Of a DNA stretch of 64,000 nucleotides, positions 10,276-29,452 are shown piece by piece (within the stretch, counting starts at the first letter, position 1; the number at the start of each line of letters is the position of its first letter). This DNA comes from Candidatus Latescibacterota bacterium (lineage in GTDB: Bacteria; Latescibacterota; UBA2968), in the NCBI GenBank assembly GCA_965198115.1, contig OZ240241.1, positions 4,064,001 through 4,128,000 of the forward strand, given 5' to 3'. The translations under genes were made by a program, and so were the position numbers. The notes under the pieces are model-generated. The model made no database searches and was not told where the DNA came from. It saw only the letters and a list, made by a program, of their open reading frames with translations.

Positions 10276-12247
10276 TCAGTTGCGGACCGGCCTTGCGTTG
10301 AAAGCCTGCTCGGTGAGGTCCGACGTTTGATTTTCGATCTCGACCTGTGGGAGAGCGATGGTGACCCTCGTCCCCTCGTTCTCCGAGGAGTGGACGTCCA
10401 TCGTCCCGCCGAAGTCCTCGACGATCGTCCTGGAGATCGACAGTCCGAGGCCAGTCCCTTTGTCGGGGTCCTTGGTCGTGAAGAAGGGATCCCAGATCTT
10501 CACGAGAATCTCCGGCGGGATGCCGCAACCGTTATCGGCAACCTCGATACCGACCTCCGGACCCGCGTCACCGGAATTGATGTAGGTGCGCACGGAGATG
10601 CAGGGCGACCGACCGTTACGGCTACCCTCGAAGGCATCGTGTGCGTTGTTCATCAGGTTGATGAGAACTTCCTCGAGGGAATATGGGTTGGCAAGAACAG
10701 GGGGCAGGTTCTCTGCCAGGTCGGCCTCGAGCGCCACGTCGTGGGACCTGAATTGGGCCTGGAGCAGGTCCATCCCCGAAGAGACAACTTCGTTCACGAA
10801 AACCGGCGAAACGTCGGGCTTGCCTGCTTCCCGGGCGAACATACGGATGTGGTCGATGATGTGGACCATGCGGTCTGCCTGTTCGACGATGCCGGAAAGA
10901 CGATCCTTCATCTTGTCGTTCGTCACACTCCATCCACGATCGAGTGAAATAAGCAGGTGCTCGGCCAATCCCCTTACCCACGAGCGGCTGGTTGAGCTCG
11001 TGGGCAATACCGGCGGCCATTTCTCCGAGAGATCGCAGTCGGTCAGACCGCATGGCAAGTGCCTGCTGTGCTTCAAGCTCACTTTCCACTTTCCGACGGA
11101 CCTCCTCGGTACGGGCGTGTTCCTGGATTTCCAGCCTCAGTTCCTTGGTCCGGTCAGCGACGCGATCTTCCAACGTTCGATTGGCGTCCTCGAGATCTCT
11201 GTAAACGGATTGCAGATTCTCCGCCATCAGATTGTAGGATACGGCCAGACTACCTATTTCATCCTCAGTTCGGACCGTGACCCTGCCATCCAGATTCCCG
11301 GAGCCGAGTTGCTCCGCGGCATCCCTCAACTCGAGGATGGGCCGGCTCACTTTCGCCGAAACCCACATGCCAAACACAAGCGTCAGGATCACAGCCAGGA
11401 AGCCCGACATCAGGACCGACGTTCTGACGACGGCAACCGCGCTTTCGGCTTCGTCGGCGTCTTGGAAGAAGACTGTGAGTCCCGCGTCGGAAAACGGAGT
11501 CGCCTTTGCATAGCAATCGACCCCGCCGAGGGTGACACGCACGGGCGCCGTCTCATCGGTATTCGCGTCATCGAACAGATCCAGCAGCACGTCTACGTCC
11601 CCGTCGGACAGGACCAGGTCAGGTCGGTCTGAAGCAGTCCCGATCACGTGCCCCTGATAGAGGATCAGAATGTCCTTGTCGGTCGTTTCCCTGACCCGTT
11701 TTGCATAGGCGTCATTCAGTTGTTGGCCAAGGCAGAGGTATCCTAGAATCTGATTCGCAATGATGACCGGCGCGACCGCGACGCTGTAATGCCCATCTTC
11801 GTAGGCCCAGATGTCGGCGGACGTCTGACCGGACTGATTGACTATCATGGCGGAAGAGCCGAAATCTTCGCCGATGCGACGCGGCCTATCGGCGTCTGCG
11901 AGTAGCGACTCGCCGGCGTCCAACACCAGCATCAGATCGACGTCGCTTGCTGCGTGTAGTTCTCTAGCCGTGTAAAGAACCGTGTCGTGGTCAACATCCG
12001 GGATGCTCAAGACCGCCTTTAAGTAGGGTGTCTGTGCAACCGACCGAGCTTTGGACGTGAGAAGATCGGTTTGGAGGTGGCTGAGTTGAGTGTAGGCCTT
12101 CTCCGCTGTCCCCAGGTTGCGGGCAAGCTCCTCCTGCCCCATTCTCTCCATCAGTCCACCCGTCAAGAAGATCGAGAGCAGAATGAAGCTCAGCGAGACA
12201 CTGACCATGCCCAGAAAGAGCCTCGACCTGATACTCAAGCGCCTCAC
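10276..12247 (-). CDS. Sensor histidine kinase (TM-periplasmic-TM-HAMP-HisKA-HATPase), apparent 2-bp frameshift at ~10976
   Basis: Two TM segments, HAMP (RPI.EL..AA..LG.G.L...DEIG.LA..YN.M), AHELNQPL H-box, NLMNNA, DNGCG, DPFFTTK, GTGLGL. Confidence 0.9.
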
Positions 12248-13259
12248 TCAATATTTCCCCGAATAGGGTTGTCCGAATTTATTCGTATGCGCAATCAGCT
12301 TCTTGTCCTCGAGAATCGTAAACGTCTGGAATGTGGTGGATCGATTCGAGACGGATAGACGCTTGCGCTGTTCTTTCCCGTACTCGTGCCAGGTTCGGAG
12401 CACATATTCTCCATCCGGCACGTCGGATATGACGAAGAGACCTCTTCGGTCTGTCAGCGCGAAATACGGATTGTCCAGGACGATGATGTTCGCAGTCATT
12501 TGTCCGTGCATGTTGCAGTAGACCTTGACCCAACCGGGTGTTGAGAACGTGACCGATTTCGATTTTCCCGGGCGGTAAATGTCGAGGTCGAAAGGTTTGG
12601 ACTTTGAAAGAGAGAAGACATTGTGAAAGATCGTGTCATCATTCGGAAAATCGACGGTCGTGCCTCTCGTGACCGGAAGAACCCTGGGGGAGAATTTGCG
12701 GCCTTCCTGTGATATCGAGGGCTGGATCACTGGCCTCGGCCATTCGGTTCCAGTCTTCACGCGATCCAAAAAGACGACCACATTCGATCGGTCCTCCCGC
12801 TCCCCACCATCCATCTCCAGAATCTTGACCTCCTCCGGCGATAACGTTCGCCCTGCCCGGGTAGCGACCCGCTCTGTCGGTTGCGTTTCTGAACTTCACG
12901 TGGCAGGACACGCAGGTTCGACGCATTTCACCAACGATCTGGGACGCTCGCTGCTGCTGCTTTGCAGCCGCGGCCGTCAGATCGGAAAATCTTCGCTCCA
13001 GATCCCCAGCATAGCCTTTGAAGACATCGATCAAATCTTCGTTGATCTGCGGTGCAATGTTGGCCAATGAATCGACCGTCCCTTTCATCCGCGTGGTCGA
13101 ATCCAGCAACGTGTCGAAGTCACCTTCGTCAAGCGCCTTCTCAACCAGCCTCAGATCACCAGCGAGTGATGCCATCGCGTGTTTGCTTGGGCCAGGATTC
13201 ATCTCATAGCCTTGGGCGGCCACGAGGCAGCAGAGCATCAGTTGGATCAGTACGGTCAT
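12248..13259 (-). CDS. Probable cytochrome c' (CxxCH) - cupredoxin/carboxypeptidase-regulatory-like fusion protein, apparent +1 frameshift at ~12832
   Basis: Signal peptide, helical domain ending CVSCHVKFR; downstream domain with FPNDDTIFHNVFS and YCNMHGQM copper ligands; removing one G gives continuous NVIAG-EVKILEMDG. Confidence 0.72.
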
Positions 13260-13270
13260 TGCGTTCGGTC

Positions 13271-14602
13271 CTAAAAGGAAACCACGACTTCAAGGGCACT
13301 GAAATTTCTGTCGTCATCACCTGGCCGCAGAGGAGAGGCGTCAATGACCTCATAGCGATCGAGACCCACTTCCAGCTTTATGGCTACTCGCGGATTCGCT
13401 CGCCACCCGGCACCGACCGAGAATCTTTGGAGTCGCTTTGCGTCGTAGCCGAAGGCCTGATTGCCACCTGCCAGGAACTCGCCACCAAAGTGGTAGCCTG
13501 CGTTCGAATCATAGGTTCCGATCTCACTGTAACGGGCGACGACCCACAGATCGTGCCTAACGAAGAAGCGAGGCTGAACCATGAACCACGTGAGGTCCCT
13601 GTCGAAAGAACGGTCCTCGTCGTTGACGAACGCTCGTCCATAGGAGAATTCGAAGTCCAGCTTTCTGGATGCCTTGACCTTCGCGTAGCCCTCATAGAGA
13701 AGCGCGTCCACCATCTTGCTGGGACTTTGCCCGAGGGCGGATTCGCCCCATACGCCCACCGGCTGGAAGAGGCTCCCACCGAGTATCAGAGCGCTTGCTG
13801 CCGTCGCTCCGTTCTTCATGACGCTTGCACTGAGATAGAGGGGCGTCCACGGTGTACCGTAGAGCTTGAAGCTGACCGCCTTCGCAGGGTCGTCTTCAAC
13901 GCTTCGAGCGATGGTACCATCCATCATGGACGCAACCCATCCGATCCCCCTCAGCTTGCCATACAAAACCAGACCTTCGTCCCATAGCCAGGGGTAGGCC
14001 GCGGAATTGGAGATCAACGGATTGTCAGGCGCATCCTGCCACAGGTATTCCTCGCCAAAGGGGATGTCCACACGACCCACCTTGACGCTCAGAAGATCAT
14101 CCCCCCACCTTCGCAGGACATTGCGAAAGTGCGCGTAGACTTCCCCCGTACTCACAGATTGGCTGTTGTCCCTCTGAAGTGCGTTGGTCTGGATTTCAAA
14201 GAAGAATGAAATGTCATCCCACGCATTCGCCTCGACGAACAGTGTCGTTTCTTTGATCACGAAACCCGGTTCGGGTCGAGTTCCATCGCTTCCAGAATCG
14301 GCCAGCCAAAACGCGCCGAATCCCGAAACGCTGAGGTTTTGATGCCAGGGCCGCGTAAAGACGGTCCCCGAAGACTCGGTCTCGGAAATCGAGGCAAGTT
14401 CCTCCCCTGACAGATCGACCGAGTCTTCTACCTCTACGGTGTCTCTGATCTCGAGGCGCTGTCTCAGCGCTTCGATCTGCAGCCTCAGTCGCTCCAGCTC
14501 CGCGAGTTCCTCCCGCGTGGTCGACTGTCCTTCAATGGTTTCTCCTGCAGACGCAACGACTGGACACAGAATCAGAATTGCGACGATAAGAGCCTTGCCC
14601 AT
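13271..14602 (-). CDS. Outer-membrane beta-barrel/porin-like protein
   Basis: Signal peptide, short coiled coil, alternating beta-strand pattern, KVGRVDIPFG motif, C-terminal Phe (LEVVVSF). Confidence 0.8.
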   Translation of the reverse strand: MGKALIVAILILCPVVASAGETIEGQSTTREELAELERLRLQIEALRQRLEIRDTVEVEDSVDLSGEELASISETESSGTVFTRPWHQNLSVSGFGAFWLADSGSDGTRPEPGFVIKETTLFVEANAWDDISFFFEIQTNALQRDNSQSVSTGEVYAHFRNVLRRWGDDLLSVKVGRVDIPFGEEYLWQDAPDNPLISNSAAYPWLWDEGLVLYGKLRGIGWVASMMDGTIARSVEDDPAKAVSFKLYGTPWTPLYLSASVMKNGATAASALILGGSLFQPVGVWGESALGQSPSKMVDALLYEGYAKVKASRKLDFEFSYGRAFVNDEDRSFDRDLTWFMVQPRFFVRHDLWVVARYSEIGTYDSNAGYHFGGEFLAGGNQAFGYDAKRLQRFSVGAGWRANPRVAIKLEVGLDRYEVIDASPLRPGDDDRNFSALEVVVSF

Positions 14603-14663
14603 TGGGTTTCCTTTCGTAATCCGGTCGGTGTGGCCTTCGCGTTGATACTCAGGTCACCAGACT

Positions 14664-14679
14664 CGCAAAACGTGTACCA
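14664..14679 (-). promoter_or_regulatory. Sigma54 (-24/-12) promoter for the porin-cytochrome/cupredoxin-kinase operon
   Basis: Minus strand TGGTAC-ACGTT-TTGCG, exact consensus spacing, ~60 bp upstream of the ATG at 14602. Confidence 0.75.
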
Positions 14680-14829
14680 ACCGTTGGGGACCGGACAAAC
14701 CGCGTAAAACGAGGCCATACGGGTGCACGGGCAACGTCGAAACACGCAACCTTAGCCAAAAGTGCTAGCACGTCTGGTGGACGATGCAGGATCGGATATC
14801 GAGCGTGGAGATTCTGAGAGAGAGGCGCC

Positions 14830-17800
14830 TTAGCCGGCGGCTTCCGACTGTAGGCTATGGGATCCAACGGCAGGAAGGGAAATCGTGACGGTGGTACCTC
14901 GACCATCTTCCGTGTCGATTTGGATGACACCGCCGAAATCCTCGATGATCGCTCTGGAGATCGATAGTCCAAGCCCGGTTCCTTTGTCAGGATCCTTAGT
15001 CGTGAAGAATGGATCCCAGATCTTCGAAAGAACATCGGGCGGGATGCCGCTGCCGTTGTCTTCGACTTCGATGCCGAGCGGGCGAGCTTCCCCGGCATTG
15101 AAGGACGTGCGAACCGAGATGCGGGGCTCCGCTCCATTACTGCTATTCACCACCGCGTCGCGCGCGTTGTTTATCAGGTTGATCAACACTTCCTCGAGGG
15201 AAAACGGATTGGCAAGCACAGGAGGCATGTCCTCAGCGAGATCGACCTTGAGGACGACATCCTGCGACCTGAGCTGCGCCCCCACCAGGCCGATCCCCGA
15301 GGAAACGACCTCATTTACGGTAACCGAAGACGAATCCGGTTTCCCAGCTTCACGAGCGAATCTACGGACGTGGTCGATAATGTGGACCATCCGGTCGGCC
15401 TGCTCGACGATGCGTCCAACGCGGTCCCTCAGCTTGTCATCCGAAACCTTCCATCCTCGGTCCAGAGAAATCAGAACGTGCTCGGCCAGGCCACGAACAC
15501 CCACCAGGGGCTGGTTCAGCTCGTGGGCGATGCCTGCCGCCATTTCTCCGAGAGACCGCAGACGGTCAGCCCGAAAGATCAGACTTCGTTGGGTTTCCAG
15601 TTCCGTCTCAGCGGCCCGTCGAGCTTCGATCTGGTTCTTCAACTTCTCGTTCGCATCATTGAGGTGCCGGGTCCGTAGCATCACGCGGTTCTCTAGGTCA
15701 CGCTTGGCGTGACGCAGCTGGAAATGCATCCTCGTGGTCCGTATACCCAGCCCGACGATGACAAGAAATGCGATCGAGCCGCCCACGATCAGGCTCTGTT
15801 TCGCTCGAGAAAATTCCAGATGTAGAACCGTCGTGGCCTCGTTCGACCATCTGAGGTCCCGATCGATGAACTGCACTTCGAAGACGTATTGCCCACTACT
15901 CAGATCCGCATATTCCACGCGGCGGCTCCTCGTGGTCGACCAGGCGTCATCGAGTCCAACCAGACGGTAGCGGAAAAGTAGATTTCGGGGGTTTGTCTTG
16001 AAACTGATCCCCTCGAATTGGAAGGTTACCAGTCCTCCCTCCGGCGCCAAGACCCGAGAGGCGTCGCGGTAATGTCGATCGGCGATCACGGATCGGATGG
16101 CCGCAGTGGATGTCGATCCAGGATTCGGCCGGAATCGTGTCAGCCCGCCGTGGGTCGTGATCCAGTAGGCGCCTTCGGCGTCCTGCACCAGGCCTTCGAC
16201 CACATTGCTCGCCAGCCCGTCTCGTTGTGTGAGGCTGGCAAAGGCTTCACCATTAAACCGAGTCAAGCCGTTCTCTGTCGCGAACCAGAGATGGCCCCCC
16301 CGATCCTCGTAGATCGATTCCACTTCGTCCACCACAAGGCCGTTTCGGGCGGTCCAGGTCTGAAACGTCTCCCCATCGAACCGACTCACACCTCCATCCG
16401 TGCCGACCCACAGGGCTCCGTCTCGACCTTCCAGCAACGACTCTACCTCATTGTCCGGTAACCCGTCCCGATCAGTAAAAATGCGCCACTCGGCTCCGTC
16501 AAAACGACAGAGACCTTCATCCGTTCCCGCCCAGAGGTTGCCTTTGCTGTCCCCCAGAAGGCATTCGACTTTGTCGTGCGGCAGGACGTTTCGAGAATCG
16601 AATGCGGTGAATCCTCGCCCGTTGAAACGAAACAGCCCCCGATCGAAGGTCCCGAACCAGACGTTCCCTGCGCGATCCTCGGCAATGGACTCGATCTCGG
16701 CACGCTTCAATGCGTCACTCGCTGGGAAGGGAAGAAACCGGCGGCCATCGAAAAAGAAAGGACCGCTTTTGGTACCAATCCAAATTCTGCCCTTGCTGTC
16801 CTCGAACACTGGCTCGACGCTGCTCGAGGGAAGATTCTCCGGAAGGTCATAAGTGACAAATGTGTTTCCATCGAACCGCGTGACGCCGGCGTTCGACGAA
16901 ATCCAGAAGTCCCCATTTCGATCTACAAAAATCTGGTCCAATTCATCCAGAGGAAGGCCGTCCTCAGTCGTGTAGGTCACGAATTCTTGCCCACGATATT
17001 GGCTTAGTCCATCCTGAGTCCCAACCCAGAGGGCGCCCTCCCTGTCGCGCTTCAGGGAAAGGACCCCTGCAACAGGGCCGCCAGGAACGCGGGTCGTATG
17101 TTCACCATCGAACCGAAACAGCCCATCGGCTGTTCCTACCCAGACGGTGCGTCCCTCGTCCTCGACAATCGAAGTTACACGAAGTCCGTCCAATTCCAGC
17201 GGAAGGACGGTCCACACTCCTTCCCCACCCACTTGCCATACGCGGTCGGAATCGGTTACCCAAACGCCACCGTCTCTCGCGAGTCCTACAATCGCAACCG
17301 GAGCGTTCGCTACTCCAAGCGTTAGGTTGAGATCTTCGAGACGACCGTCGCTCATTCGGTAGAGACCCAAGTCGGACCCGAACCAAACCGAGCCCGATCG
17401 ATCTTCGATGATCACGTTTACCGGGACGGACTCGAGTCCAGTAACGACCTTGAAAGTGATTCTTCCTGCTTGCTCCAATCGAGCAGCGCCTCGGGCCATC
17501 CCCACCCAAAGACGTCCGGACCGGTCCTTGTGGAGCGCGCGCACCTCCTCTGAAGGCAAACCGTGTTTGCCACTGAGGTTGGTAGAGCCGCCATCAACAC
17601 GTCTGAACACACCCGAATCGGTTCCAACCCACAACTCACCTGAACCTCCCGGCAGGATCGCTCTTACACTTGTGTCGGCGAGCCCATCTTCCCGCGATGA
17701 TGTAGCAAAGGATCGGCCGTCGAAACGCGTGAGGCTCCCACCAGCGGCGAGCCACAGGTACCCCGTGCTATCCTGTACGATCGAGGTCACAGAACCACTC

Positions 17801-17940
17801 GGAAGTCCGTCACCCCTACCGAAGTGTCGCCAATGACCGCCGAGCTTTCCGACACGGAATCCTGTCGCTTGTTTCGCAGCATCCGCAGCCCCTGCTACCA
17901 GAAAGACCGAGACAATCGCCAGAAACGCCAGAGACCGCAC
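14830..17940 (-). CDS. Beta-propeller (Reg_prop/Y_Y_Y) sensor histidine kinase
   Basis: Many DGLP.....I.ED..G.LW.GT..GL repeats, YRYRL.G.D..W-type Y_Y_Y domain, TM, AHELNQPL, HATPase; start approximate (GTG 17940, after the upstream stop at 17969). Confidence 0.92.
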   Translation of the reverse strand: MRSLAFLAIVSVFLVAGAADAAKQATGFRVGKLGGHWRHFGRGDGLPSGSVTSIVQDSTGYLWLAAGGSLTRFDGRSFATSSREDGLADTSVRAILPGGSGELWVGTDSGVFRRVDGGSTNLSGKHGLPSEEVRALHKDRSGRLWVGMARGAARLEQAGRITFKVVTGLESVPVNVIIEDRSGSVWFGSDLGLYRMSDGRLEDLNLTLGVANAPVAIVGLARDGGVWVTDSDRVWQVGGEGVWTVLPLELDGLRVTSIVEDEGRTVWVGTADGLFRFDGEHTTRVPGGPVAGVLSLKRDREGALWVGTQDGLSQYRGQEFVTYTTEDGLPLDELDQIFVDRNGDFWISSNAGVTRFDGNTFVTYDLPENLPSSSVEPVFEDSKGRIWIGTKSGPFFFDGRRFLPFPASDALKRAEIESIAEDRAGNVWFGTFDRGLFRFNGRGFTAFDSRNVLPHDKVECLLGDSKGNLWAGTDEGLCRFDGAEWRIFTDRDGLPDNEVESLLEGRDGALWVGTDGGVSRFDGETFQTWTARNGLVVDEVESIYEDRGGHLWFATENGLTRFNGEAFASLTQRDGLASNVVEGLVQDAEGAYWITTHGGLTRFRPNPGSTSTAAIRSVIADRHYRDASRVLAPEGGLVTFQFEGISFKTNPRNLLFRYRLVGLDDAWSTTRSRRVEYADLSSGQYVFEVQFIDRDLRWSNEATTVLHLEFSRAKQSLIVGGSIAFLVIVGLGIRTTRMHFQLRHAKRDLENRVMLRTRHLNDANEKLKNQIEARRAAETELETQRSLIFRADRLRSLGEMAAGIAHELNQPLVGVRGLAEHVLISLDRGWKVSDDKLRDRVGRIVEQADRMVHIIDHVRRFAREAGKPDSSSVTVNEVVSSGIGLVGAQLRSQDVVLKVDLAEDMPPVLANPFSLEEVLINLINNARDAVVNSSNGAEPRISVRTSFNAGEARPLGIEVEDNGSGIPPDVLSKIWDPFFTTKDPDKGTGLGLSISRAIIEDFGGVIQIDTEDGRGTTVTISLPAVGSHSLQSEAAG

Positions 17941-19005
17941 GACGGAAGGAACCGTTCCCAGCCAAGCTCTACCCGCTGGTCGGCAGAATGACGGCAACTG
18001 TCGTTCCCTTTCCCGGCTTGCTGTCGACTGTGAGGGTTCCGCCAAACTCTTCCACGATGCCCTTCCGAGATCGACAGCCCCAGACCCGTCCCCTTGTCGG
18101 GGGCCTTGGTGGTGAAGAAGGGATCCCAGATTCTGGTAAGAAGGTCATCGGGGATCCCGCAGCCGTTGTCCCCAACTTCGATTCCGACCTTGGGCTGCGC
18201 ACCCTCGGCCTCGAGGTAGGTGCGCAGGGAGATACGCGGAGCCGAACCGTTCTGGCTTCCTTCCACGGCGTCACGCGCGTTATTCATCAAGTTGATCAGG
18301 ACCTCTTCGAGCGAAAAAGGGTTGGCCAGAACATTGGGCAGCTCTTCCGCTAGGTTGGCTTCGAGCGCAACCCCGTGCGACTTCAACTGGGCACCCAGCA
18401 GATCGATGCCAGAGGAAACGACTTCGTTCAAGGAAACCGGACACAAATCGGGCTTTCCGGCCTCTCGGGCGAACATCCGGATGTGATCGATGATGTGAAC
18501 CATGCGATCAGCCTGTTCGACGATGCGCCGGACACGATCTCTGAGCTTGTCTTCCGAAACCTCCCACCCTCGATCGAGGGAAATCAGAACGTGTTCGGCC
18601 AGTCCGCGAACACCCACGAGGGGCTGGTTCAGTTCGTGAGCGATGCCCGCGGCCATCTCTCCCAGGGATCGCAGCCGGTCGGATCGGATGCTGAGCGCGC
18701 GTTGCGCTTCCAGCTCACGTTCCGCGTTCATTCGCGCTTCGTCCGCCTCGATGCGCTGCGTGATGTCCACGAGTGAACCCACGATTTCCGTCGGTCTGCC
18801 GTTCTGGTCCCTGACCAGATGGGCCTGATCGTGAACCCATCGATACGCACCCGATTTGTTTAGGATTCGGTAGGCGTGGGCGTGCTGGTTTTTCGTGAAG
18901 ATTCCCGGGAATTCACCCATCACCCGGGGCAGATCCTCCATGTGGATGTTGTCGATCCAAAACGTCTCGTCGGACAAGACTTCATCCGGCTGATACCCGA
19001 GCAAC

Positions 19006-20382
19006 GAGCTACAATCAATAGGTGTGGAAAAATAGAAAAGGCGACCCTACACTTCCCGTGAGATAACAATATCCACGAAATACCGGGTTCACAGGCCCGG
19101 TGGGAAGGAGGATCGCCGTGGGAAAACATAAGTCGAAGTCCCCCTCGTTGTCCATGCCGACGTGGGAAACCCTTGAGGGGTGGTTGCGTAAGGAAATCGA
19201 GGTTCGCATTCAGTCCATCGTTGAGGAGGAAGTGACCCAGTTCCTCGGACGCGGGTGGTATGAGCGCAAAGAAGCCGTAGATGCAGGATCCGGTTATCGC
19301 AACGGCTATGGGAAGCTGCGGCGATTGTCGACCTCTTGCGGCACGATCCAGATCAAGCGGCCCCGTGTTCGCGGTTTGGAGGAGCGCTTCGAGAGCAGGA
19401 TTCTGCCGTTGTTCGCTCGGCGCACGAGAGAGGTGGGGGAACTGCTCCCGGAGCTCTATCTCCACGGTCTGTCTCAGGGCGACTTCGAGTTGGCCCTGCG
19501 AGGGCTTCTCGGTGATGGGGCTCCGCTCTCCCCCTCGTCGATTGCTCGCCTCCGCGGTCAATGGGAGGTTGATTACCAGACCTGGCAGGAACGACGCCTG
19601 GACGATCGTGAGCTCGTGTATGCCTGGGCCGATGGGATCTACGTCAAAGCCGGACTTGAGAAAGATAAGGCGTGTCTGCTTGTCGTGATCGGCGCCATGA
19701 GTGACGGCCGCAAAGAGGTTCTGGGCCTGGTGCCTGGGTATCGCGAGTCGACCGAGTCCTGGCTGGCTGTCCTTAGAGACCTACGGGATCGCGGCTTGGA
19801 TCACCCCATTCTGATGGCGGCCGATGGCAATATGGGCATCTGGTCTGCCGTCGATCAGGTCTGGCCGCACACCCGTCAGCAGCGGTGCTGGAACCACAAG
19901 ATTCTCAACGTCCCGGACCAGATCCACAAACGTCAGCAGCCTCAAGCTCGTGCACTGCTCGTCCAGATTCCCTATGCCAGCACGCGTCAGGATGCGGAGA
20001 AGCTGCGCAAGCAGTTCGTCGCACGATATCGCAACGAGTTCCCGAAGGCGGTGGCAACACTCGAACGGGATTGGGATAGGATGCTCACCTTCTTCGATTT
20101 CCCAGAAGAACACTGGCGCCACCTGAGAACGACCAACATCGTCGAGAGCCCCTTTGCATCCGTGCGGTTACGAACCAACGCCGCCAAACGCTACAAGAAG
20201 GTCGTCTCGGCAAGCGCTCTCATCTGGCGAACACTGATGGTCGCCGAGAAACGCTTCCGGCGACTCAATGCACCCCATCTGTTACACGTTGTTTATGCAC
20301 AGCACAACCAAACTATGACCACAATCGACTCCGGGAAGAAGCTGGCCGCCTGATCTATTTACACACCTCTTGACTCGACCTC
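19006..20382 (+). mobile_element. IS256-family insertion sequence
   Basis: Imperfect terminal IRs GAGCTACAATCAATAGGTGTG / GAGGTCGAGTCAAGAGGTGTG; 8-bp target duplication CGAGCAAC at 18998-19005 and 20383-20390. Confidence 0.95.
19100..20353 (+). CDS. IS256-family (mutator-type DDE) transposase
   Basis: YRNGY, LYLHGLS, YAWADG, ADG, QRCWNHK, LRTTNIVES motifs; intact ORF. Confidence 0.96.
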   Translation: MGRRIAVGKHKSKSPSLSMPTWETLEGWLRKEIEVRIQSIVEEEVTQFLGRGWYERKEAVDAGSGYRNGYGKLRRLSTSCGTIQIKRPRVRGLEERFESRILPLFARRTREVGELLPELYLHGLSQGDFELALRGLLGDGAPLSPSSIARLRGQWEVDYQTWQERRLDDRELVYAWADGIYVKAGLEKDKACLLVVIGAMSDGRKEVLGLVPGYRESTESWLAVLRDLRDRGLDHPILMAADGNMGIWSAVDQVWPHTRQQRCWNHKILNVPDQIHKRQQPQARALLVQIPYASTRQDAEKLRKQFVARYRNEFPKAVATLERDWDRMLTFFDFPEEHWRHLRTTNIVESPFASVRLRTNAAKRYKKVVSASALIWRTLMVAEKRFRRLNAPHLLHVVYAQHNQTMTTIDSGKKLAA

Positions 20383-21654
20383 CGAGCAACCCTTTGACAT
20401 TTTCGCTGACGAACGTAAACACCATTTGATCGTCCGGCCGACAGCTGTAGATGACGGCGGGGCTCGTGTCCAGCAGGTGCTGGAGCCTGCTTCGTGTGGA
20501 ACTCAACTGCTCCCGTACACGCTCTCGGTTCGCAAGTTCTCTTCTTCTCATCGAATAAAGGACGGCCAAGAATCCGACAAGCCCGAATCCAGGCAGGAAC
20601 ACGTAGCGAGCAAGTGCCCCCCACAACCGCCGGCTCTCCGCCCGATCCGTCGCCGGCCCTGTCCACCTCAGATCCCCGACCGCACTGCCAGAAGGTCCCG
20701 CAGTCAAGAACTTCGACGAACTCAAGAGGGAGAAATCTCCAGACTCTGCATCGAAATAGTGGGGGTCGGCGCTGAAACAGCAGTCCATGCTCGGACCGGT
20801 GTTGAAGTTCTTTCGGTTGTCATAGGTACAGATGGCCATCCTCTGGGCCTTAGGGTGGCTGAGCAACGCGTAGCTCCGGCAGCCCGTAAGAATGCTGCTG
20901 GAGATCAGAGCATCGGGAACGGCAAGAATGTCGACCCCGTCATAGGCGTTGTGTACGGTGATGTGAGAGATCCTGATTCGCACGGGAATTCGCACCCTGT
21001 CGACCTTGATCGCAGATTCGCCCAGATAGGAGAAGGTGCAATTCTGAATCTCGAGATACCGAACTTCATCTGGCCGCCTGAAGTCCACCGCCACCTGGCC
21101 AATGTTGTAGAAGAGCGTGTTGGTGATCACACAAGTGAGTGAGGTCCCACCCTCACCGGATACCCCTGCGACGACAAATCCGTCGATCTCACAATTGTCG
21201 ATGATGAGCTTCCGGGGTACGGCGGACACGCTACGGATAGCTCGTTGCGTGACGTTGGCCCCGGTCAGCCGGACACCACGAAGCAACAGGTCGCCGCGAG
21301 CGGAGAGATGGCTCTTCCCTTCGGTTCGCCAGACCGGGCGGTCCGACAGATCGGGATCGACGATCAGACTGAGAGCAACGTCCGGGCAAAACAACCTGAT
21401 CCGACTCGTGATAGATGCCGCTCGATACGATTACGAGCGTATCTCCGGCCGCCGCCAATCGGGCCGCCCGACTGATCGTATTGGTGCCTGACCGAATCGG
21501 GATAACCCGGGCGTGAGTGTCACGGCCCAGACAAGCGCGACCAAACACATCAGTGCTATTCCGGTCATTCTGCGCCGCTTTCCAAGTTGCACGTGCACAT
21601 CTTTCATCGTCGCTCCGCAGGTCACCAAGCCATGACGCATCTTGCGAAGTTCAC

Positions 21655-22425
21655 TCATGATGCAGTGCCGCTCCGGCTTTCACCACGCGTCGAGTTCTCC
21701 CGCTTGATCTGTTCCTTCTGCCAGACGTAGTCGACTTCACCCTTATAGAAGGCCAACGGCGTCTCTACCGCCCAGAGCTGCTTCCGGATCACCCAATTGT
21801 CAGGATCGAGATGGACTGCTGCCCTCAGCTCCACGAGTGCTTCCGCTCGATTATTTTGCTCCAGAAGTTGGGTCGCCCGCTGAAACCGTTCGTCCGCCTC
21901 CTGCTCCCTCGACGAGAGAGGGTGTGGAATCTCGGGTCTGTTCGATTCGGACCAGGCCGCCGGGATCGTTCCCGTCAGAACCCATTCCAGGAGTTCGGCA
22001 CTGAAATCAGACTCGTCGATGTTGACAGGTCCGATTGACTTGGCGAGAAGACCTTCTTCATCCAGGAGGATGCCGACGGGGACATACTTAAGGTTGAAGA
22101 CCTTGCCGATCACGTTGTGCTGGTCTAGAAGACTGGGGAACGTAGCGCCAGCCTTTTGAACCCAGGGCTTCGCCGCTTCAGCCCCTTGCGCGTCCTGCGC
22201 GATCGAGACGATCTGGACCAGGCCTTTGTGAGACTCGTGAAAGGACTGCCATCCAGGCAGCTGGCTGCGGCACCCTCACCACGATGCCCACACGAAGAAC
22301 ACAGTCCTCTTTCCGATGAATTCGTCCGATGTAACGAGATCTCCTTCGAAGAGATCCGGCAGGCTGATCGCTGGTGGCTTATCCCCGATCCCGAATCCCA
22401 ACCGGCCTTCTTGCGTGGTGTCCAT
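21655..22425 (-). CDS. Selenocysteine-containing TlpA/ResA-like thioredoxin-fold protein (WASW-U-GC) with C-terminal TPR-like region, 256 aa
   Basis: ATG 22425 reads MDTTQ...TVFFVWASW-TGA-GCRSQLPGWQ in frame through to ORF 21655-22113; TGA (22276-22278) sits at the redox-active Cys position; cis-Pro motif YVP present. Confidence 0.88.
22237..22279 (-). promoter_or_regulatory. Candidate bacterial SECIS element
   Basis: CTGCC-tggat-GGCAG hairpin with G-containing loop 20 nt after the UGA; GTGAGGG can pair with CTTTCAC as a lower stem. Confidence 0.65.
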
Positions 22426-22497
22426 CCCAATGCTTCCTTCCGTCAATGTTGCGGGGAGATTCAGGCACGAGAAAGTGTCATCGAGAGTATGGCTTCT

Positions 22498-22863
22498 TCA
22501 GATAGCACTCATTGGTGCCAGCTCGACGGCTTCCAGGACTTGATCCAGATCCAGCAATCGGATGGGCTTGACCAGGACAGTCAACACGTCCTCAGGTGGA
22601 CCCTGACTGGCCAGATCCACGTGGCCGCTGATGGTGACAAGGGGCAGATCGTGAGATTTCCCATTGATCTTCCGGAGGAGTTCCTCTCCGTCAAGACCCG
22701 GCATTCGCAGGTCCACAAAAGCGAGATCGAAGCTTCTCAGGTCCAGGATGTCCAGGGCAGCCTGTCCGTCCATAGCGGTCTCCACCCGATGCCCGCACTC
22801 GGCCAGGTATTCCCCGATGGTTTCGTGCACGATTTCCTCGTCATCCACGATCAATATTCTCAC
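22498..22863 (-). CDS. Single-domain response regulator (CheY-like receiver)
   Basis: ILIVDDE, FVDLRMPGLDG, ISG, KP. Confidence 0.92.
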   Translation of the reverse strand: MRILIVDDEEIVHETIGEYLAECGHRVETAMDGQAALDILDLRSFDLAFVDLRMPGLDGEELLRKINGKSHDLPLVTISGHVDLASQGPPEDVLTVLVKPIRLLDLDQVLEAVELAPMSAI

Positions 22864-23267
22864 GGTTGTGCTCCTGCATCTGAGGGTAAAACGGCTTCGA
22901 CGCCGGCCGCGTCTTCGAGAAATCGCTCCAATTCTTGGAGTCTGAAGGGCTTCCCCAGAACCCCGATGGTGCCCAGCTGAGAAGCCCGATCTCTCAAATC
23001 GGAACTATAAAATCCTGCCATCAAGCAGACTCGAATGTGAGGCCACGATTCCCGGATTCGGTGTGTCAGGTCATACCCACTCATGCCCGTCATCTGGACA
23101 TCGACAAAGGCGATGTCATAGAGCGTGGCACGCAGCGCCGCCAAGGCGGCTTCGCCGTCTTTGACCGAGGTCACATCGTGGCCCAGGTCGTCGAGAAAGG
23201 TCGTCAACGTCTGTCGGACGATTTCCTCATCGTCCACGACTAAAATCTGCTTGCTGGAATGGCTCAT
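22860..23267 (-). CDS. Single-domain response regulator (CheY-like receiver)
   Basis: ILVVDDE, FVDVQMTGMSG, KPF; Ala in place of the usual Thr/Ser (LMAG). Confidence 0.9.
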   Translation of the reverse strand: MSHSSKQILVVDDEEIVRQTLTTFLDDLGHDVTSVKDGEAALAALRATLYDIAFVDVQMTGMSGYDLTHRIRESWPHIRVCLMAGFYSSDLRDRASQLGTIGVLGKPFRLQELERFLEDAAGVEAVLPSDAGAQP

Positions 23268-23305
23268 ATTCCCCGGTGGCTCCGACTGGTGATCCTAATA
23301 CACAC

Positions 23306-23321
23306 CGCAACAGCCGTGCCC
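23306..23321 (-). promoter_or_regulatory. Sigma54 (-24/-12) promoter for the receiver-selenoprotein-kinase operon
   Basis: Minus strand GGGCAC-GGCTG-TTGCG ~40 bp upstream of ATG 23267, preceded by an AT-rich tract (23335-23375, possible IHF region). Confidence 0.7.
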
Positions 23322-23455
23322 GAACGTGCTGAAGTCTATAACCCGTTCATAAACAGACTTTTAGTTCTATATAGTGTGGTCTGGCGAAAGTGCGTCGTTG
23401 AGTCAGGGTTAGCGATCCTTGACAGCAATAGATGACAACTCCGACTTCCCGACAG

Positions 23456-24820
23456 TCAAGCGATTTGGTACTTCTGAATTTTGTAGCGCAAGGTCGAATA
23501 GGGGATATCCAATGCAACCGCCGCCGCCTTACGATTCCACTTTGCTTCCTCGAGAGCAGTCAGGATCGAATCCCTTTCGCCAAAACTTTCCGATGGGATC
23601 ATCTTCGCTGTGGAGACCTTCGAGTGCCCATTGTGTCGACCCAGGTGGGCGGCATTAATGTCCCCGGATCTCGAAAGGATCGCTGCTCGTTCGATCATAT
23701 TCCTGAGCTCGCGTACGTTTCCCGGGAACGCGTAATCGAGCAGGTATTCTTTTGCATCCTGCGTCAACGATTTTTCCGAAACACCCCGTTGTGTTGCATA
23801 AACCGCAAGAAACTGTTCGGCAATGGGCATCACGTCTTCAGGGCGCTGATTCAAGGGTGCCAACTCGATCGGAAACACATTCAGTCGGTAAAACAGGTCG
23901 CTTCTGAATCTTCCTTCGGCGACCGCGTCTTCCAGCGGCGCATTCGAGGCCGCCACGACCGTGAGGTTCACGCTGATTTCCTTCGATCTGCCGACGCGTC
24001 TGAAGCTTCTCGTTTCCAGGGCACGGAGCACCTTGGCCTGGGCGTCGGCCGACAGGTCCGCGATCTCATCCAGAAAGAGCGTTCCGCCATCGGCCAACTC
24101 GAAATAGCCGGGTTTGTCCGTGGTCGCACCCGTAAAGGCACCCTTGGCGTGGCCAAAAAGCTCGCTTTCCACGAGGGCTTCGGGCAGAGCCGGGCAACTG
24201 ACCGGGATAAAGGGACGATCGGGGTTGCCACTCTTGAAATGAAGCTCTCTTGCGACGACCTCTTTGCCCGTACCCGTTTCTCCCGTGATCAGGACGGAAT
24301 CCACCCGTGCTTCGATGGCCAGATCGATCTGTTCACAGACTGACTCCGCGTTGGGACTCGCACCCATGAAACCGCAGGCGCTTTCCCTCAGGGCGCTGGA
24401 CTGGATCCCGCCGATCGTCTGTTTCAGATGTCGCTTGTCCTTCTCCAGACCACCGAGGCGAGCCACTTTTTCCAGAACCGCCTCGAGTTCCAGCAGCTTG
24501 ACTGGCTTGGGCAGGAAGTCAGCGGCCCCCGAACGAAGGGCTTCGATGACCATCTCCATGTTCCCGTGGCCCGTTATCATGACGATCGATGTTTCGGGGC
24601 ACGTTTTCCTAGCCCTCTCCAGGAGTTCCAGCCCGCTGAGACCCGGCATTTTGACATCGATGATCGCAAGGTCGTAGTCGTCCTTACCCAGTGCGATCAA
24701 GGCCGAGTCTCCTTCGCGGCAACTCTTGAACCGGTGCCCGCAATCCATCAGGTAATCGCCAATAGTCTCGTGAACGATCTGCTCGTCATCGACTAAAAGA
24801 ATGTTGAGTTGGCCCGACAT
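23456..24820 (-). CDS. NtrC-family sigma54-dependent response regulator (REC-AAA+-Fis HTH)
   Basis: Receiver, GETGTGKE Walker A, ESELFGHAKGAFTGA, LFLDEI, FRSDLFYRL, FPGNVREL, C-terminal HTH. Confidence 0.96.
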   Translation of the reverse strand: MSGQLNILLVDDEQIVHETIGDYLMDCGHRFKSCREGDSALIALGKDDYDLAIIDVKMPGLSGLELLERARKTCPETSIVMITGHGNMEMVIEALRSGAADFLPKPVKLLELEAVLEKVARLGGLEKDKRHLKQTIGGIQSSALRESACGFMGASPNAESVCEQIDLAIEARVDSVLITGETGTGKEVVARELHFKSGNPDRPFIPVSCPALPEALVESELFGHAKGAFTGATTDKPGYFELADGGTLFLDEIADLSADAQAKVLRALETRSFRRVGRSKEISVNLTVVAASNAPLEDAVAEGRFRSDLFYRLNVFPIELAPLNQRPEDVMPIAEQFLAVYATQRGVSEKSLTQDAKEYLLDYAFPGNVRELRNMIERAAILSRSGDINAAHLGRHNGHSKVSTAKMIPSESFGERDSILTALEEAKWNRKAAAVALDIPYSTLRYKIQKYQIA

Positions 24821-24871
24821 GTTTTCCTACTCCGGTTGGCGTTGAAAGTCCTTCAGCCTACCGTTACCTAT

Positions 24872-24887
24872 CGCAAACGGGGTGCCA
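24872..24887 (-). promoter_or_regulatory. Sigma54 (-24/-12) promoter upstream of the NtrC-type activator itself
   Basis: Minus strand TGGCAC-CCCGT-TTGCG ~50 bp upstream of ATG 24820. Confidence 0.78.
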
Positions 24888-25318
24888 AAACCCATTCGCT
24901 ACGACACAAAATTTATGACGGTTGCAAGTCGTTCTTTTGGTGAAGTTATGATCCTTCACTCCCCGGGAAATCGCCCCGTCACAAGAGGATCCGATAGGCT
25001 TCGGGTGGTCGATTTCAACCACAGAGAGGGATCACCTCCACACGTCGTAAGACAGGTCTTACAAAGTGTCGCTTATGTGGGTCGGATCGTCCTGATTTTG
25101 GCGGCGTACAAAGACACTCCAGGACCGGATCCCACGTGCGTTCGTGGTGTATTTCCATTTGCCCCTACACTCTTCTCCAGTCATTTTGGGCTGAGGAACC
25201 ACGCTCCCGCAGTCAATCGGATGGTTCACGACATCGATCCAGATGCCATCTGAATCGATGGACCCAACGCCTTCCTTAGACTGCAGGATGACCACACCAT
25301 TCGACCTGGAGACCCACG

Positions 25319-25792: not shown

Positions 25793-27358
25793 ATGCCTGA
25801 AAATTTCGATATCCTGATTGTCGGCTCGGGTTCCGCCGGCTCCATTCTAGCCGCACGTCTCTCCGAAGAAGCCGGCCGTTCGGTTCTGCTGTTGGAAGCC
25901 GGGCCGGATTTCCGGACGGACGAATTACCCGACGAGATTCGGCGCGCTTACGGCGACCGCAACATCTGGCCCAAGGCGTTCGGGACGGAAACGAAGTTCG
26001 GATGGGGCTACCGGGGCCGCGGAACCGACGATTCCCCCGACATGATCGTTCCGCGAGGAAAAATCATCGGAGGTTCGAGTGCGGTGAACGCTCAGATCTT
26101 CTTGCGGGGTCCCCGGGAGGACTACGATTCTTGGGCCTCGTTCGGGAACGATCAGTGGAGCTACAACAGGCTCCTGCCTTACTTCTGTCTGAACGAGGCC
26201 GATCCTGACTTCTCCAACGACTACCACGGCAACAACGGACCGATCCGTATTCACAGGTTCAAGAATCCCGAATTGAATCCCGACCATCGCGCGTTCTACT
26301 CAGCCTGTCTGGATGCCGGTTACGCAGACTGTCCCGACCACAACGATCCCGATTCGACCGGCGTTGGGCCGCTTGCCCTCAACAACCCGAATGGCATTCG
26401 TTGGAGCACAGCGATGGGCTATCTGGAGCCTGCGCGGGATCGGGACAACCTCACGATCAGGGGCGACTGTCACGTTCGCCGAATCCTTTTCGAAGGAACA
26501 CGCGCAGTCGGCGCGGAGGTCGACAGCCGGGGTGAAACTTTCACTGTGCACGCGGCTGAAACCATCGTCTCTGGGGGCGCAATCGCTTCCCCACAGATCC
26601 TGATGCTGTCCGGGCTCGGTCCCGCTGATCATCTGTCGAGCCTGGGTATTCCGGTCGTACTGGATGTGCCCGGTATCGGGCAGAACCTGCGGGATCATCC
26701 CCAGGTCCCCGTGACCCTTCGCTCGAAGAACGACGTGATGCCCGACGGTTCAGACCCTCCGCTGCAGGTGGGCCTCCGCTACACGGCGACGGGCTCCGAC
26801 CTGAAGAACGACATGCTCATCCTTCCTGTGACCTTCGCCACGGAGGAAGGCTTCTACGTTTCGTCCCAAAGCGATCCAATCGGATTCTACCTCACCGCTT
26901 GCATCTATCTGGCCGCGGGCGCTGGGCAGATCACCCTCGCTTCATCCGATCCATACGACAAGCCGAACCTCGACTACGACTATCTCGCAGATCCTTTCGA
27001 TCGTGACCGGCTGCGCGAAGCCGTACGCATCATCATCGAGCTGACCGGTCACGCTGACTTTCGGAAAATCATCGAAGAGCGTGTCGACCCTACAGACGAG
27101 GATCTCGCGACCGATGCCGCGCTCGACGCGTGGATGAGCCGGAAGGTCTCGACGAGCCACCACTCGTCGTCGACGTGCAAAATGGGGCCCACATCCGACG
27201 ATGCGGCCGTCGTCGATCAGTTTGGGAAGGTATATGGTGTCGAGGGGCTTCGGGTCGCCGACGCCTCAATCATGCCCGACTGTGTCCGTGCCAATACGAA
27301 CGTATCGACGATGGTGATCGGAGAGCACATCGCCGATTTCATACGAAACGGATTCTGA
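25793..27358 (+). CDS. GMC family FAD oxidoreductase (choline dehydrogenase-like)
   Basis: IVGSGSAG, PRGKIIGGSSAVN, SPQILMLSG, GQNLRDHP, LRVADASIMP. Confidence 0.94.
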   Translation: MPENFDILIVGSGSAGSILAARLSEEAGRSVLLLEAGPDFRTDELPDEIRRAYGDRNIWPKAFGTETKFGWGYRGRGTDDSPDMIVPRGKIIGGSSAVNAQIFLRGPREDYDSWASFGNDQWSYNRLLPYFCLNEADPDFSNDYHGNNGPIRIHRFKNPELNPDHRAFYSACLDAGYADCPDHNDPDSTGVGPLALNNPNGIRWSTAMGYLEPARDRDNLTIRGDCHVRRILFEGTRAVGAEVDSRGETFTVHAAETIVSGGAIASPQILMLSGLGPADHLSSLGIPVVLDVPGIGQNLRDHPQVPVTLRSKNDVMPDGSDPPLQVGLRYTATGSDLKNDMLILPVTFATEEGFYVSSQSDPIGFYLTACIYLAAGAGQITLASSDPYDKPNLDYDYLADPFDRDRLREAVRIIIELTGHADFRKIIEERVDPTDEDLATDAALDAWMSRKVSTSHHSSSTCKMGPTSDDAAVVDQFGKVYGVEGLRVADASIMPDCVRANTNVSTMVIGEHIADFIRNGF

Positions 27359-27393
27359 GTCCGCATCGTGACCCGCGACTTGTGAGACGAAAC

Positions 27394-29452
27394 ATGCTCG
27401 AGCGGCTTCGCAAATGGCTCAATCGGCAGGACTCTACGAACGTCGCCGACATCGTAGCCAGAGATTCTCTGCGCTTTCTCTTTGAGCGTGGTCCTGAGGC
27501 CTATTATCTCGCAGATCTTCAGGGTCATTTCATCGATGGCAACAAAGTCGCCGAAGAGCTCATCGGATACGCCCGAGAGGAGTTGATTGGTAAGAGCTTC
27601 CTCAAGCTCAAACTCTTGCCGACGGACCAAATACCTCGAGCTGCGGCAAATCTGGCGCGTTGCGCCCTAGGCTATGCGGTCGGTCCGGAGGAATACCAAC
27701 TTCGAAGAAAAGATGGCCAGATACTCGATATAGAAATCACGACGATTCCGGTGCAGCTCGAGGGGACAACGTATGTCCTGGGTTTGGCCCGAGACATCGC
27801 CTATCGCAAACAGATAGAGAGCGAACTCCGCGAAAAGGACGATCGCTACACGCGCGCGGTTTCATCAGGAAAAGTGGGTGTGTGGGATTGGAACATCCCC
27901 ACCGGTGACATCTTTCTCGATCCCATCCTGAAAGAGATGCTCGGCTATGAGGACGCTGAGATCCAGAACCACATCGACGAGTGGAGAAAGCGCGTTCACC
28001 CCGACGACAACGAAGCCGTCGTGTCTGCCACCAACGACTGCCTCGAGGGCAAGACCGACAGCTATGAGATCGAACATCGTATGGTGTGCAAGGATGGATC
28101 TGCCCGCTGGTATCTGGCGCGCGGCGACGTCGTACGCGACGCAGGACGGGCGACGAGGATGATCGGCACGAACACTGACATCACTCACATCAAAGAGATG
28201 GAAACGGAGCTTCGCGCAGCCAACTCGAGGACCTCGTGCAGCAACGGACGTCAGAGCTTCAAACCGCCAACGAACGTCTAAAGAACGAGGCCAAAGAGCG
28301 GGACCTCCTCGAAACCGAGCTCATCCGTGTCCAGCGTCTGACCGCCCTGGGTGAACTATCTGCAGGGGTGAGTCACAACCTGAACAACATTCTGACCGGT
28401 GTGCTGGGTCCCGCGAAGCTACTGCGCGTCAGGGTAGACGGCTCCGACCTCGCGCCCGAAATGGACACGATCATCAGGGCCGGCACACGGGCAGCCGACC
28501 TCGTCAAACGCCTCCACCACGCCGTCGGCGACCCGCACGAGACAACGTCGTCGGTCGATCTCAACCGGCTTGTCGAAGAGGCTGTGGCCGACACGCGACC
28601 CCGGTGGAAGGATGAGGCGGAGGGCCGAGGAGCCGAGATTGTCCTCCACACGGATCTGGGGGAAATCCCTCACGTCGAGGCCACACAAAGCGGTGTCTAC
28701 GACATCCTGATCAACCTGATTTTGAATGCCGTTGACGCCATGCCCGGAGGCGGTGATATCGAAATCACAACCTCGAGCACAGGGGACAATGTTCGCTTGA
28801 CGGTCGGTGACGATGGCATCGGAATGGACGATACCACGCGTGAACGCGCCTTCGAGCCCTTCTTCACGACCAAAGCGAAGGTCGGGACCGGTCTGGGTCT
28901 TTCGACCGTCTACGGCTCTGTTATTCGATGGGGCGGTAAAATCGACATCGAGAGTGAAATTGGCATCGGCACGCGATTCATCGTCGAGCTTCCAGCCACA
29001 AAGTCCGGCTTGCAAAGCGGAAGCCTAACCGACCCGGCTCCCTCCACGGAGCGGCAGGCCCGCATCCTGATCGTCGAGGACGAGCCATTTGTCGTCGAAC
29101 TCCTCGACCGCGTGCTGCGACCGCGGCATCGACTGACCATCCTCGATGACGGCGATCGTGCCCTCAAGACCTTCTCGGTGAATGAATTCGATATCGCTCT
29201 GATCGACCTGGGTCTGCCGGACGCCCGGGAGATCAGGTTGCCGAAGAAATCGCGCGGCGCGATCCAAGCGTCGTGCGTGTGTTGATCACCGGTTGGTTCC
29301 TGCAAGAGAACGACAGCCGGCTCAAGCCGTTCGACCTCCATCTTCAAAAACCGATCTCCGGCTCCGCCCAGATTCAAAGCATCGTCGCCAAAGCGATGGC
29401 CCTGCACGATGCGCGCCACCCTCCTCGTTCAAACCCCGTTCCGGGGGACTGA
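27394..29452 (+). CDS. Cytoplasmic hybrid histidine kinase (PAS-PAS-HisKA-HATPase-REC), apparent frameshifts at ~28225 and ~29225
   Basis: Two PAS/PAC domains, SHNLNNIL H-box, NLILNA, EPFFTTK, GTGLGL, receiver ILIVEDE..IDLGLP continuing in another frame as PGDQVAEEI..LITGW..LQKP to the stop at 29452. Confidence 0.85.

Follow-up and report, generated by a model that had tools for sequence, protein, structure and literature searches.

Several described groups of redoxins lie close to the protein treated here. The first comprises ResA, StoA, TlpA and DsbE, thioredoxin-fold proteins whose redox pair is a C-x-x-C motif. The second is the UGC-containing Prx-like/TlpA family (Zhang and Gladyshev 2008), with a U-G-C motif (U for selenocysteine, Sec) in a PF00578/TlpA-type fold, and with Cys homologues. 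The protein treated here is assigned to it by motif and domain. Table 2 of PMC2398784 lists 46 sequences as "Prx-like (UGC-containing)", and a UGC-containing TlpA family is among the entries of PMC13188914. The table and family entries cited from these two papers assign the group neither a function nor a TPR-like tail, and they mention no kinase or sel operon nearby. The third is the NCBIfam family NF041054, WAxxUGC_long, a model of 354 positions for "ResA-like WAxxUGC motif-containing protein".

UGC-motif TlpA/Prx-like selenoproteins have been catalogued since 2008, so the family itself is not new. Its miscalling by gene callers is already known as well. What is new is a context, a short form of the protein that is linked to a histidine kinase. 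A literature search at the level of listings found no paper on a kinase-linked form. PMC13326102 and bioRxiv 2022.07.06.499078 do not use the terms for such a link in their main texts, nor were "histidine kinase" and "two-component" found in PMC13188914. For a family that the cited passages leave without function or substrate, the kinase neighbour is a concrete candidate partner.

The gene and its predicted fold

The window, that is, the whole stretch of DNA analysed, is 64,000 nucleotides long and comes from a Latescibacterota genome (G000). The gene in question and its parts are as follows.

21655..22425, minus strand: UGC-motif selenoprotein gene (predicted), 256 aa, with a ResA/TlpA thioredoxin fold (residues ~12-150) and a helical TPR-like tail
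22433..22441, minus strand: purine-rich, ribosome-binding-like site judged from sequence, 7 nt ahead of ATG 22425
22276..22278, minus strand: in-frame TGA, codon 50, likely Sec, with Cys52 as the next redox residue; context FVWASW-U-GCRSQLPGWQ
22245..22261, minus strand: candidate SECIS hairpin, a 5-bp stem with one G-U pair and a 5-nt loop starting 20 nt past the TGA
21670..21912, minus strand: residues 172-252, a helical tail with one TPR-like hairpin and the conserved segment NW-IRKQ-W

The reading frame runs on the minus strand from ATG 22425 to the TGA at 21657-21655, 256 codons with a single internal TGA. In a table-11 list of open reading frames the gene begins at GTG 22113, the earliest in-frame start past that TGA, and is reduced to its final 152 aa. 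The first-pass annotation had proposed that this piece belongs to a longer frame broken once, at codon 50, and that the motif is U-G-C instead of UxxC; the sequence and its translation agree with it on both points. Truncated calls of this kind, pieces of 152-191 aa that begin past the TGA, make up 52 of the 85 database matches. GC content by codon position is alike on the two sides of the TGA (0.55/0.45/0.67 before, 0.65/0.42/0.69 after).

The same annotation had asked for the TGA to be compared with sequencing data. Contigs from runs X1 and X2 match 20354-25000 with 0 differing letters and 0 gaps, the TGA included; both come from one sample, which may be the assembly's own source, and are not an independent confirmation. 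Run X3 leaves the TGA uncovered, and run X4 yields nothing but short pieces from other organisms. A scan of 21400-25300 for promoters and terminators stayed at chance level (1 against 1.5 and 4 against 3.0).

The Pfam families AhpC-TSA and Redoxin match above their cut-offs (PF00578 at 42 bits, cut-off 26). A structure model based on 49 sequences (pLDDT 92.9) shows a ResA/TlpA fold followed by a four-helix tail. The best matches among solved structures are ResA, StoA and DsbE (PDB 1st9, 3erw and 3gl3), and they cover the redoxin half only. With ResA the rmsd is ~2 A over 138 columns (1st9). U50 aligns to the first Cys of the StoA/ResA WxxWCxxC motif, with a one-residue gap ahead of C52. The TGA had been placed beforehand at just this first Cys of the TlpA/ResA WAxWCxxC motif. 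The fold and the position of the first redox residue are shared with the ResA/StoA/TlpA proteins, whereas the window protein has U-x-C in place of C-x-x-C and carries neither a membrane anchor nor a signal peptide.

The C-terminal tail is covered by none of the ResA, StoA and DsbE structures listed. In the model its helices span residues 172-189, 193-206 and 211-221. No TPR family of Pfam matches the tail of the window protein, which gives a weak PilW match (E 0.002); PF07719 matches many of the homologues. Active-site and tail residues are strongly conserved among the relatives. Longer fused forms of the protein were absent from the 7996 candidates searched, which is weak evidence that there are none.

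The best NCBIfam match is to NF041054 (E 3e-38, 132 bits), with which the protein shares the WAxxUGC motif, the redoxin domain and the helical tail. A ResA-like WAxxUGC selenoprotein family had been named in the first annotation, which this match supports. The window protein lacks positions 1-83 of the profile, its match beginning at 84, and only 72 nt separate the stop of the receiver gene upstream from ATG 22425. With 132 bits against a cut-off of 300, and with the N-terminal part of the profile missing, identity as NF041054 proper was rejected. The cut-off is passed by one of seven relatives tested. Because even an intact long relative from the phylum scores 155, this lineage is better described as a sister group of NF041054 than as its equivalog.

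Predicted selenocysteine at codon 50

The genome (8.43 Mb, one contig) encodes SelA, SelB and SelD, each above its curated cut-off, and a tRNA-Sec; selD carries a TGA of its own. Sec machinery had been named as the thing to look for, and the whole set is present.

A family match at E 1e-20 is present in 45 of 168 genomes from the phylum, with 46 matches in all. Every one of the 45 full-length matches holds one TGA, and the remaining match is partial, at a contig end. For the codon-50 column and the hairpin, 44 loci were parsed, leaving out that of G001 (motif WASR) and the partial one of G099. The column is TGA in all 44. Of 13 more distant database proteins fetched, as protein sequences only, eight cover the column, seven with Cys and one with Trp. 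This is the pattern of Cys or TGA that an alignment of homologues had been expected to reveal.

The hairpin, too, had been noticed at the outset, as one with a G-containing loop 20 nt downstream. Its stem pairs 22260-22256 with 22250-22246, and G stands at loop positions 2-3. All five stem pairs are intact in 44 of 44 loci. The outer pair is C-G in 28 loci and U-A in 16, a double change at synonymous sites; the 16 form the genus g4. Loop bases 1 and 4 can pair in 42 of the 44 loci (U-A in 32, C-G in nine, A-U in one), compared with 26% of the Pro-Gly codon pairs in the long frames of this genome. The 44 loci are related, such that the changes in stem and loop represent a few events and not 44. 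The hairpin agrees with the four constraints in the legend of Fig. 2 of PMC13188914 (a 5-nt loop with G second, a stem of 5-6 bp, a spacing of 20, and -10 kcal/mol). It differs from the commonest loop of that legend in having two bases, not three, between the paired N1 and N2.

The other reading of this codon is that translation truly ends at the TGA, or that the TGA arose by sequencing error or nonsense mutation, leaving as product only the 152-aa C-terminal frame or nothing at all. In its favour, adjacent genes have decayed, and the hairpin folded alone is no stabler than shuffled sequences (-10 kcal/mol, z -1.15; longer windows, z 0.1 to 1.1). Because the folding energy is unremarkable, support for the SECIS element is comparative, and the comparison points the other way. 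A TGA kept in 44 of 44 loci, compensatory changes in the stem, a complete Sec machinery, even codon-position GC around the TGA and the agreement of the X1 and X2 contigs all argue against a stop, and this reading is very improbable. Judged from the machinery and the conserved hairpin, Sec is almost certainly inserted at UGA50.

A genome-wide pattern scan for a TGA followed by this type of hairpin gave 16 matches, of which the two copies of this family alone look like clear selenoproteins; the scan missed selD and hence is no census.

A frame at G000:C1:3251115-3251560 on the minus strand resembles BCP/peroxiredoxin and has the motif TGG-U-TAE (TxxU) with a hairpin after its TGA. It is likely another miscalled selenoprotein.

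Genomic contexts of the family

Most members of the family have other neighbours than the window copy. Within ~1.5 kb, selA, selB, selD or tRNA-Sec is found at 26 of the 44 loci, a beta-helix kinase at four, and neither at 14. Next to sel genes, the family gene (X) occurs in the arrangements selB-X-selC, selB-X-selD-selC or X-selD-selC. The neighbourhood of Sec machinery hints at a role in Sec synthesis itself, or at its control by read-through.

Both contexts occur in this genome. A scan of its contig with the window protein found two family loci, and it is the sole genome of the 45 with two copies. The second copy, 58% identical, lies in an operon of the order selA-selB-X-selC and ends 4 nt before the edge region of the tRNA call.

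G000:C1:3585303-3589736 (L001:9304-13962): selA-selB-[second UGC redoxin]-tRNA-Sec operon
L001:10170-10200; L040 near 9315; L050 near 8700: frameshifts in sel-operon copies

The sel-operon copies of G000, G001 and G010 are frameshifted between the N-terminal and redoxin domains, at different places. In G000 an in-frame ATG past the break would yield a short form. The G001 copy also has W changed to R ahead of its TGA, and its tail has a gap.

Where a long form begins like a signal peptide (5' ends in L011, L013, L015, L016, L018, L019, L022 and L001), a second Met mostly lies just past the probable cleavage site, as judged by eye. Several others (G053, G116, G123, G151 and G157) seem by eye to begin at that post-cleavage Met. 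Exported and cytoplasmic isoforms are possibly the meaning of this pattern.

Besides the window copy, short forms, which have neither a signal peptide nor the N-terminal domain, are found in G042, G060, G102 and G108. In each of these it is the only family member found, and all four genomes have selB. By eye, none of the five short forms has a hydrophobic N-terminus. In a tree of the selenoproteins (39 rows, with 12 of the 16 near-identical g4 rows omitted) the four form a group with support of 100/99; that for adding the window copy to it is 86/64, a weak placement.

The neighbouring kinase and a possible role

The first-pass annotation had placed the gene between receivers and kinases, with its stop overlapping a candidate kinase start. 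Both descriptions hold: two receiver genes lie upstream, kinase genes lie downstream, and the stop overlaps ATG 21658 (ATGA), which opens the piece encoding the kinase's signal peptide. The adjacent kinase gene is broken.

23456..24820, minus strand: NtrC-type sigma-54 response regulator, head of the cluster
22860-23267 and 22498-22863, minus strand: two stand-alone receiver-domain genes, upstream of the selenoprotein gene
17969..21658, minus strand: broken sensor kinase gene, with signal peptide, beta-helix, one transmembrane segment, PAS_3, HisKA and HATPase
19006..20382, plus strand: IS256-family element, transposase 19100-20353, inside the PAS domain of the kinase
10276..18045, minus strand: remaining cluster, five genes with kinases at both ends, as listed below
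14830-18045, minus strand: propeller/Y_Y_Y kinase
13271-14602, minus strand: 443-aa open reading frame without a family match
12639-13259, minus strand: cytochrome c'-like gene
12248-12814, minus strand: cupredoxin-like gene
10276-12247, minus strand: frameshifted Cache-HAMP kinase

From ATG 21658 the kinase frame stops after 75 codons. Frameshifts lie near 21520 and 21400, with the stop between them and the start of the beta-helix broken, and a third lies near 18065; the X1 and X2 contigs have identical letters at these places. The IS256 element has an 8-bp target duplication and terminal inverted repeats matching at 19 of 25 positions. Seven full-length copies at 99.8% identity or more occur in the genome, the one in the window included. 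The contigs reach 29-30 bases into each end of the element, where the mark for bridging is 31 bases. With the insertion and three frameshifts, the adjacent kinase is a pseudogene in this strain.

Because the kinase is broken, any selenium-dependent polarity on it could have no effect here. The whole frame of the redoxin is no proof of selection, because with three shifts in ~2.3 kb a gene of 0.77 kb often escapes by chance. The window copy may be the orphan of a redoxin-kinase pair, or it may act on the sister kinases of the cluster.

The block from the 443-aa frame through the cytochrome c'-like and cupredoxin-like genes to the Cache-HAMP kinase (10276-14602) is conserved in G102 (L082:17209-20000), at 40-65% identity where matched, beside NtrC-type and receiver genes. 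It is a possible extracytoplasmic redox-sensing module. Kinase genes at 10276-12247 and 27130-29285 look frameshifted, and a sister cluster in G052 also has transposase genes; the signalling genes of the window may be decaying.

The short gene stands directly upstream of the same type of kinase in four genomes of three families (G000, G042, G102 and G108). These kinases have a signal peptide, a beta-helix, one membrane segment, PAS domains, HisKA and HATPase. The kinase gene is intact in G042 and G108, the pairs on which the link can be tested, whereas that of G102 is frameshifted once.

Eight of the 168 genomes contain the beta-helix domain. Where it is combined with this PAS_3 domain and kinase core, the short gene is directly upstream in four cases of four, and four of the five short forms have the kinase. 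No redoxin accompanies the five beta-helix kinases that have other cores and readable upstream DNA. There is none on the contigs fetched from G054, G005 and G003, which have other kinase cores, and the kinase of G006 starts at a contig end. A scan of metagenomes with the kinase alignment, covering 55 of 64 parts, confirmed at least three loci, of which L079 repeats the locus of G054; among the matches listed none is of the linked type and none has a redoxin. A word search with the beta-helix of the kinase returned only itself and one unrelated protein, and in a full HMMER search the complete kinase architecture turned up in one representative, seen without gene context.

Each of the four genomes has its own flanks around the pair, while the redoxins are ~47-52% identical to one another, and the NtrC cluster of G102 and that of G108 are far away from the pair. 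A beta-helix tree joins the kinases of G042, G108 and G102 at 99/99 and repeats the branching order of their redoxins. It leaves the G000 kinase unplaced, and a single clade of all four kinases is not rejected (p-AU 0.46). The four linked genomes probably represent one inherited cassette, not four independent events.

A signalling role for the gene had been suggested from its position between receivers and kinases. The same kinase type directly downstream in G042, G102 and G108 supports such a role; the link is to this kinase and not to the receivers. The NtrC/receiver clusters of G052, G058, G153 and G157 have no selenoprotein in the 11-20 kb fetched, and the gene was rejected as a core part of such clusters. 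Two of these genomes, G052 and G058, do carry kinases that share the PAS_3 domain and core, with no redoxin in the DNA fetched.

Judged by eye from its missing signal peptide, the redoxin is predicted to be cytoplasmic. Its chemistry is probably thiol-disulfide exchange, by analogy with ResA and StoA: SelB would bind the hairpin 20 nt past UGA50, Sec would be inserted there, Sec50 would attack an oxidised cysteine or a disulfide, and Cys52 would resolve the product, as in the C-x-x-C pair of those proteins.

One model for its role, proposed tentatively, is that of a direct redox accessory of the beta-helix/PAS histidine kinase. Through its TPR-like tail the redoxin would dock on a partner. The best candidate is the PAS-kinase part of its neighbour, which lies in the cytoplasm, and the output of the kinase would thereby be tuned by the cytoplasmic redox state. 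Co-inheritance is seen in four genomes; both the binding and its direction are inferred.

Evidence bearing on the binding comes from predicting the redoxin in complex with the cytoplasmic portion of the G108 kinase; the pair scored 0.32, the best of three controls 0.00. The runs have at least 72% of their contacts in common, and the pLDDT of the partner is at least 73. The input was the stretch of the redoxin past the TGA, without the first 61 residues and Sec. The mark for a pass is reached by 116 of 157 solved pairs and by two of 215 mismatched pairs; at scores of 0.60 or under, 18 solved pairs and both mismatches reach it. By the tool's calibration such a pass is more often wrong than right unless the pairing is likely beforehand. 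As weak support, the prediction moves the odds of binding a little.

Another model is that of a Sec redoxin which does the ordinary job of its family on other substrates and merely shares a transcript with the kinase, be it as a regulated output or as the passenger of a two-gene cassette inherited once. This is possible, and several observations speak for it. At 40 of the 44 family loci there is no such kinase. In G042, G060, G102 and G108 no family member other than the short form was found, and G060 showed no kinase of the linked type. In this strain the redoxin gene is intact and the kinase dead. The four linked kinases share no cytoplasmic Cys. A Cys in the first PAS domain is present in the three that have this domain, which G000 lacks, and the best conserved cysteines sit in the beta-helix part, out of the redoxin's reach because that part is exported and the redoxin has no signal peptide. 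A passenger is harder to reconcile with a pair that is kept at this level of redoxin divergence while its flanks change, and that stays joined in G102 and G108 with the NtrC cluster elsewhere; the weak pass of the complex prediction, against controls at zero, also leans away from it. The two models are about equally probable; the accessory role is preferred, by no real margin, since the pair persists while every flank changes and the complex prediction leans towards it.

A third model, which goes back to the first-pass annotation, is a selenium gate, in which translation of the kinase is coupled to the true stop of the redoxin. In low selenium ribosomes would stop at UGA50, and no kinase would be made. 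The kinase start overlaps the redoxin stop (ATGA) in G000 and G102. In G108 the first ATG candidate overlaps the 3' end of the redoxin, and in G042 the gap is 19-22 nt. Termination at the early TGA would leave ~620 nt untranslated. Overlaps of start and stop codons are common in operons, which counts against a gate, and the short gene of G060 likewise overlaps an unrelated gene. The strong conservation of active-site and tail residues would be needless in a mere leader, and the kinase here is dead. A gate of this kind is quite improbable.

The two mechanisms could also be combined, in that the redoxin docks on the kinase and switches it by redox state, and coupling through the Sec codon makes the kinase depend on selenium. 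Such a selenium-and-redox-gated sensor, for which no counterpart was found in the literature searched, is unlikely. If the link to the kinase is direct, in whichever form, the protein would be a selenoprotein acting within bacterial two-component signalling. If it is not, the finding is a corrected annotation.

Elsewhere in the same genome, two TlpA-like genes with C-x-x-C motifs (G000:C1:1133346-1133714 and 3200775-3201143) give identical matches, which suggests a recent duplication. At G000:C1:2870558-2872531, 20 tRNA genes lie on one strand within 2 kb, as in mobile elements or phages.
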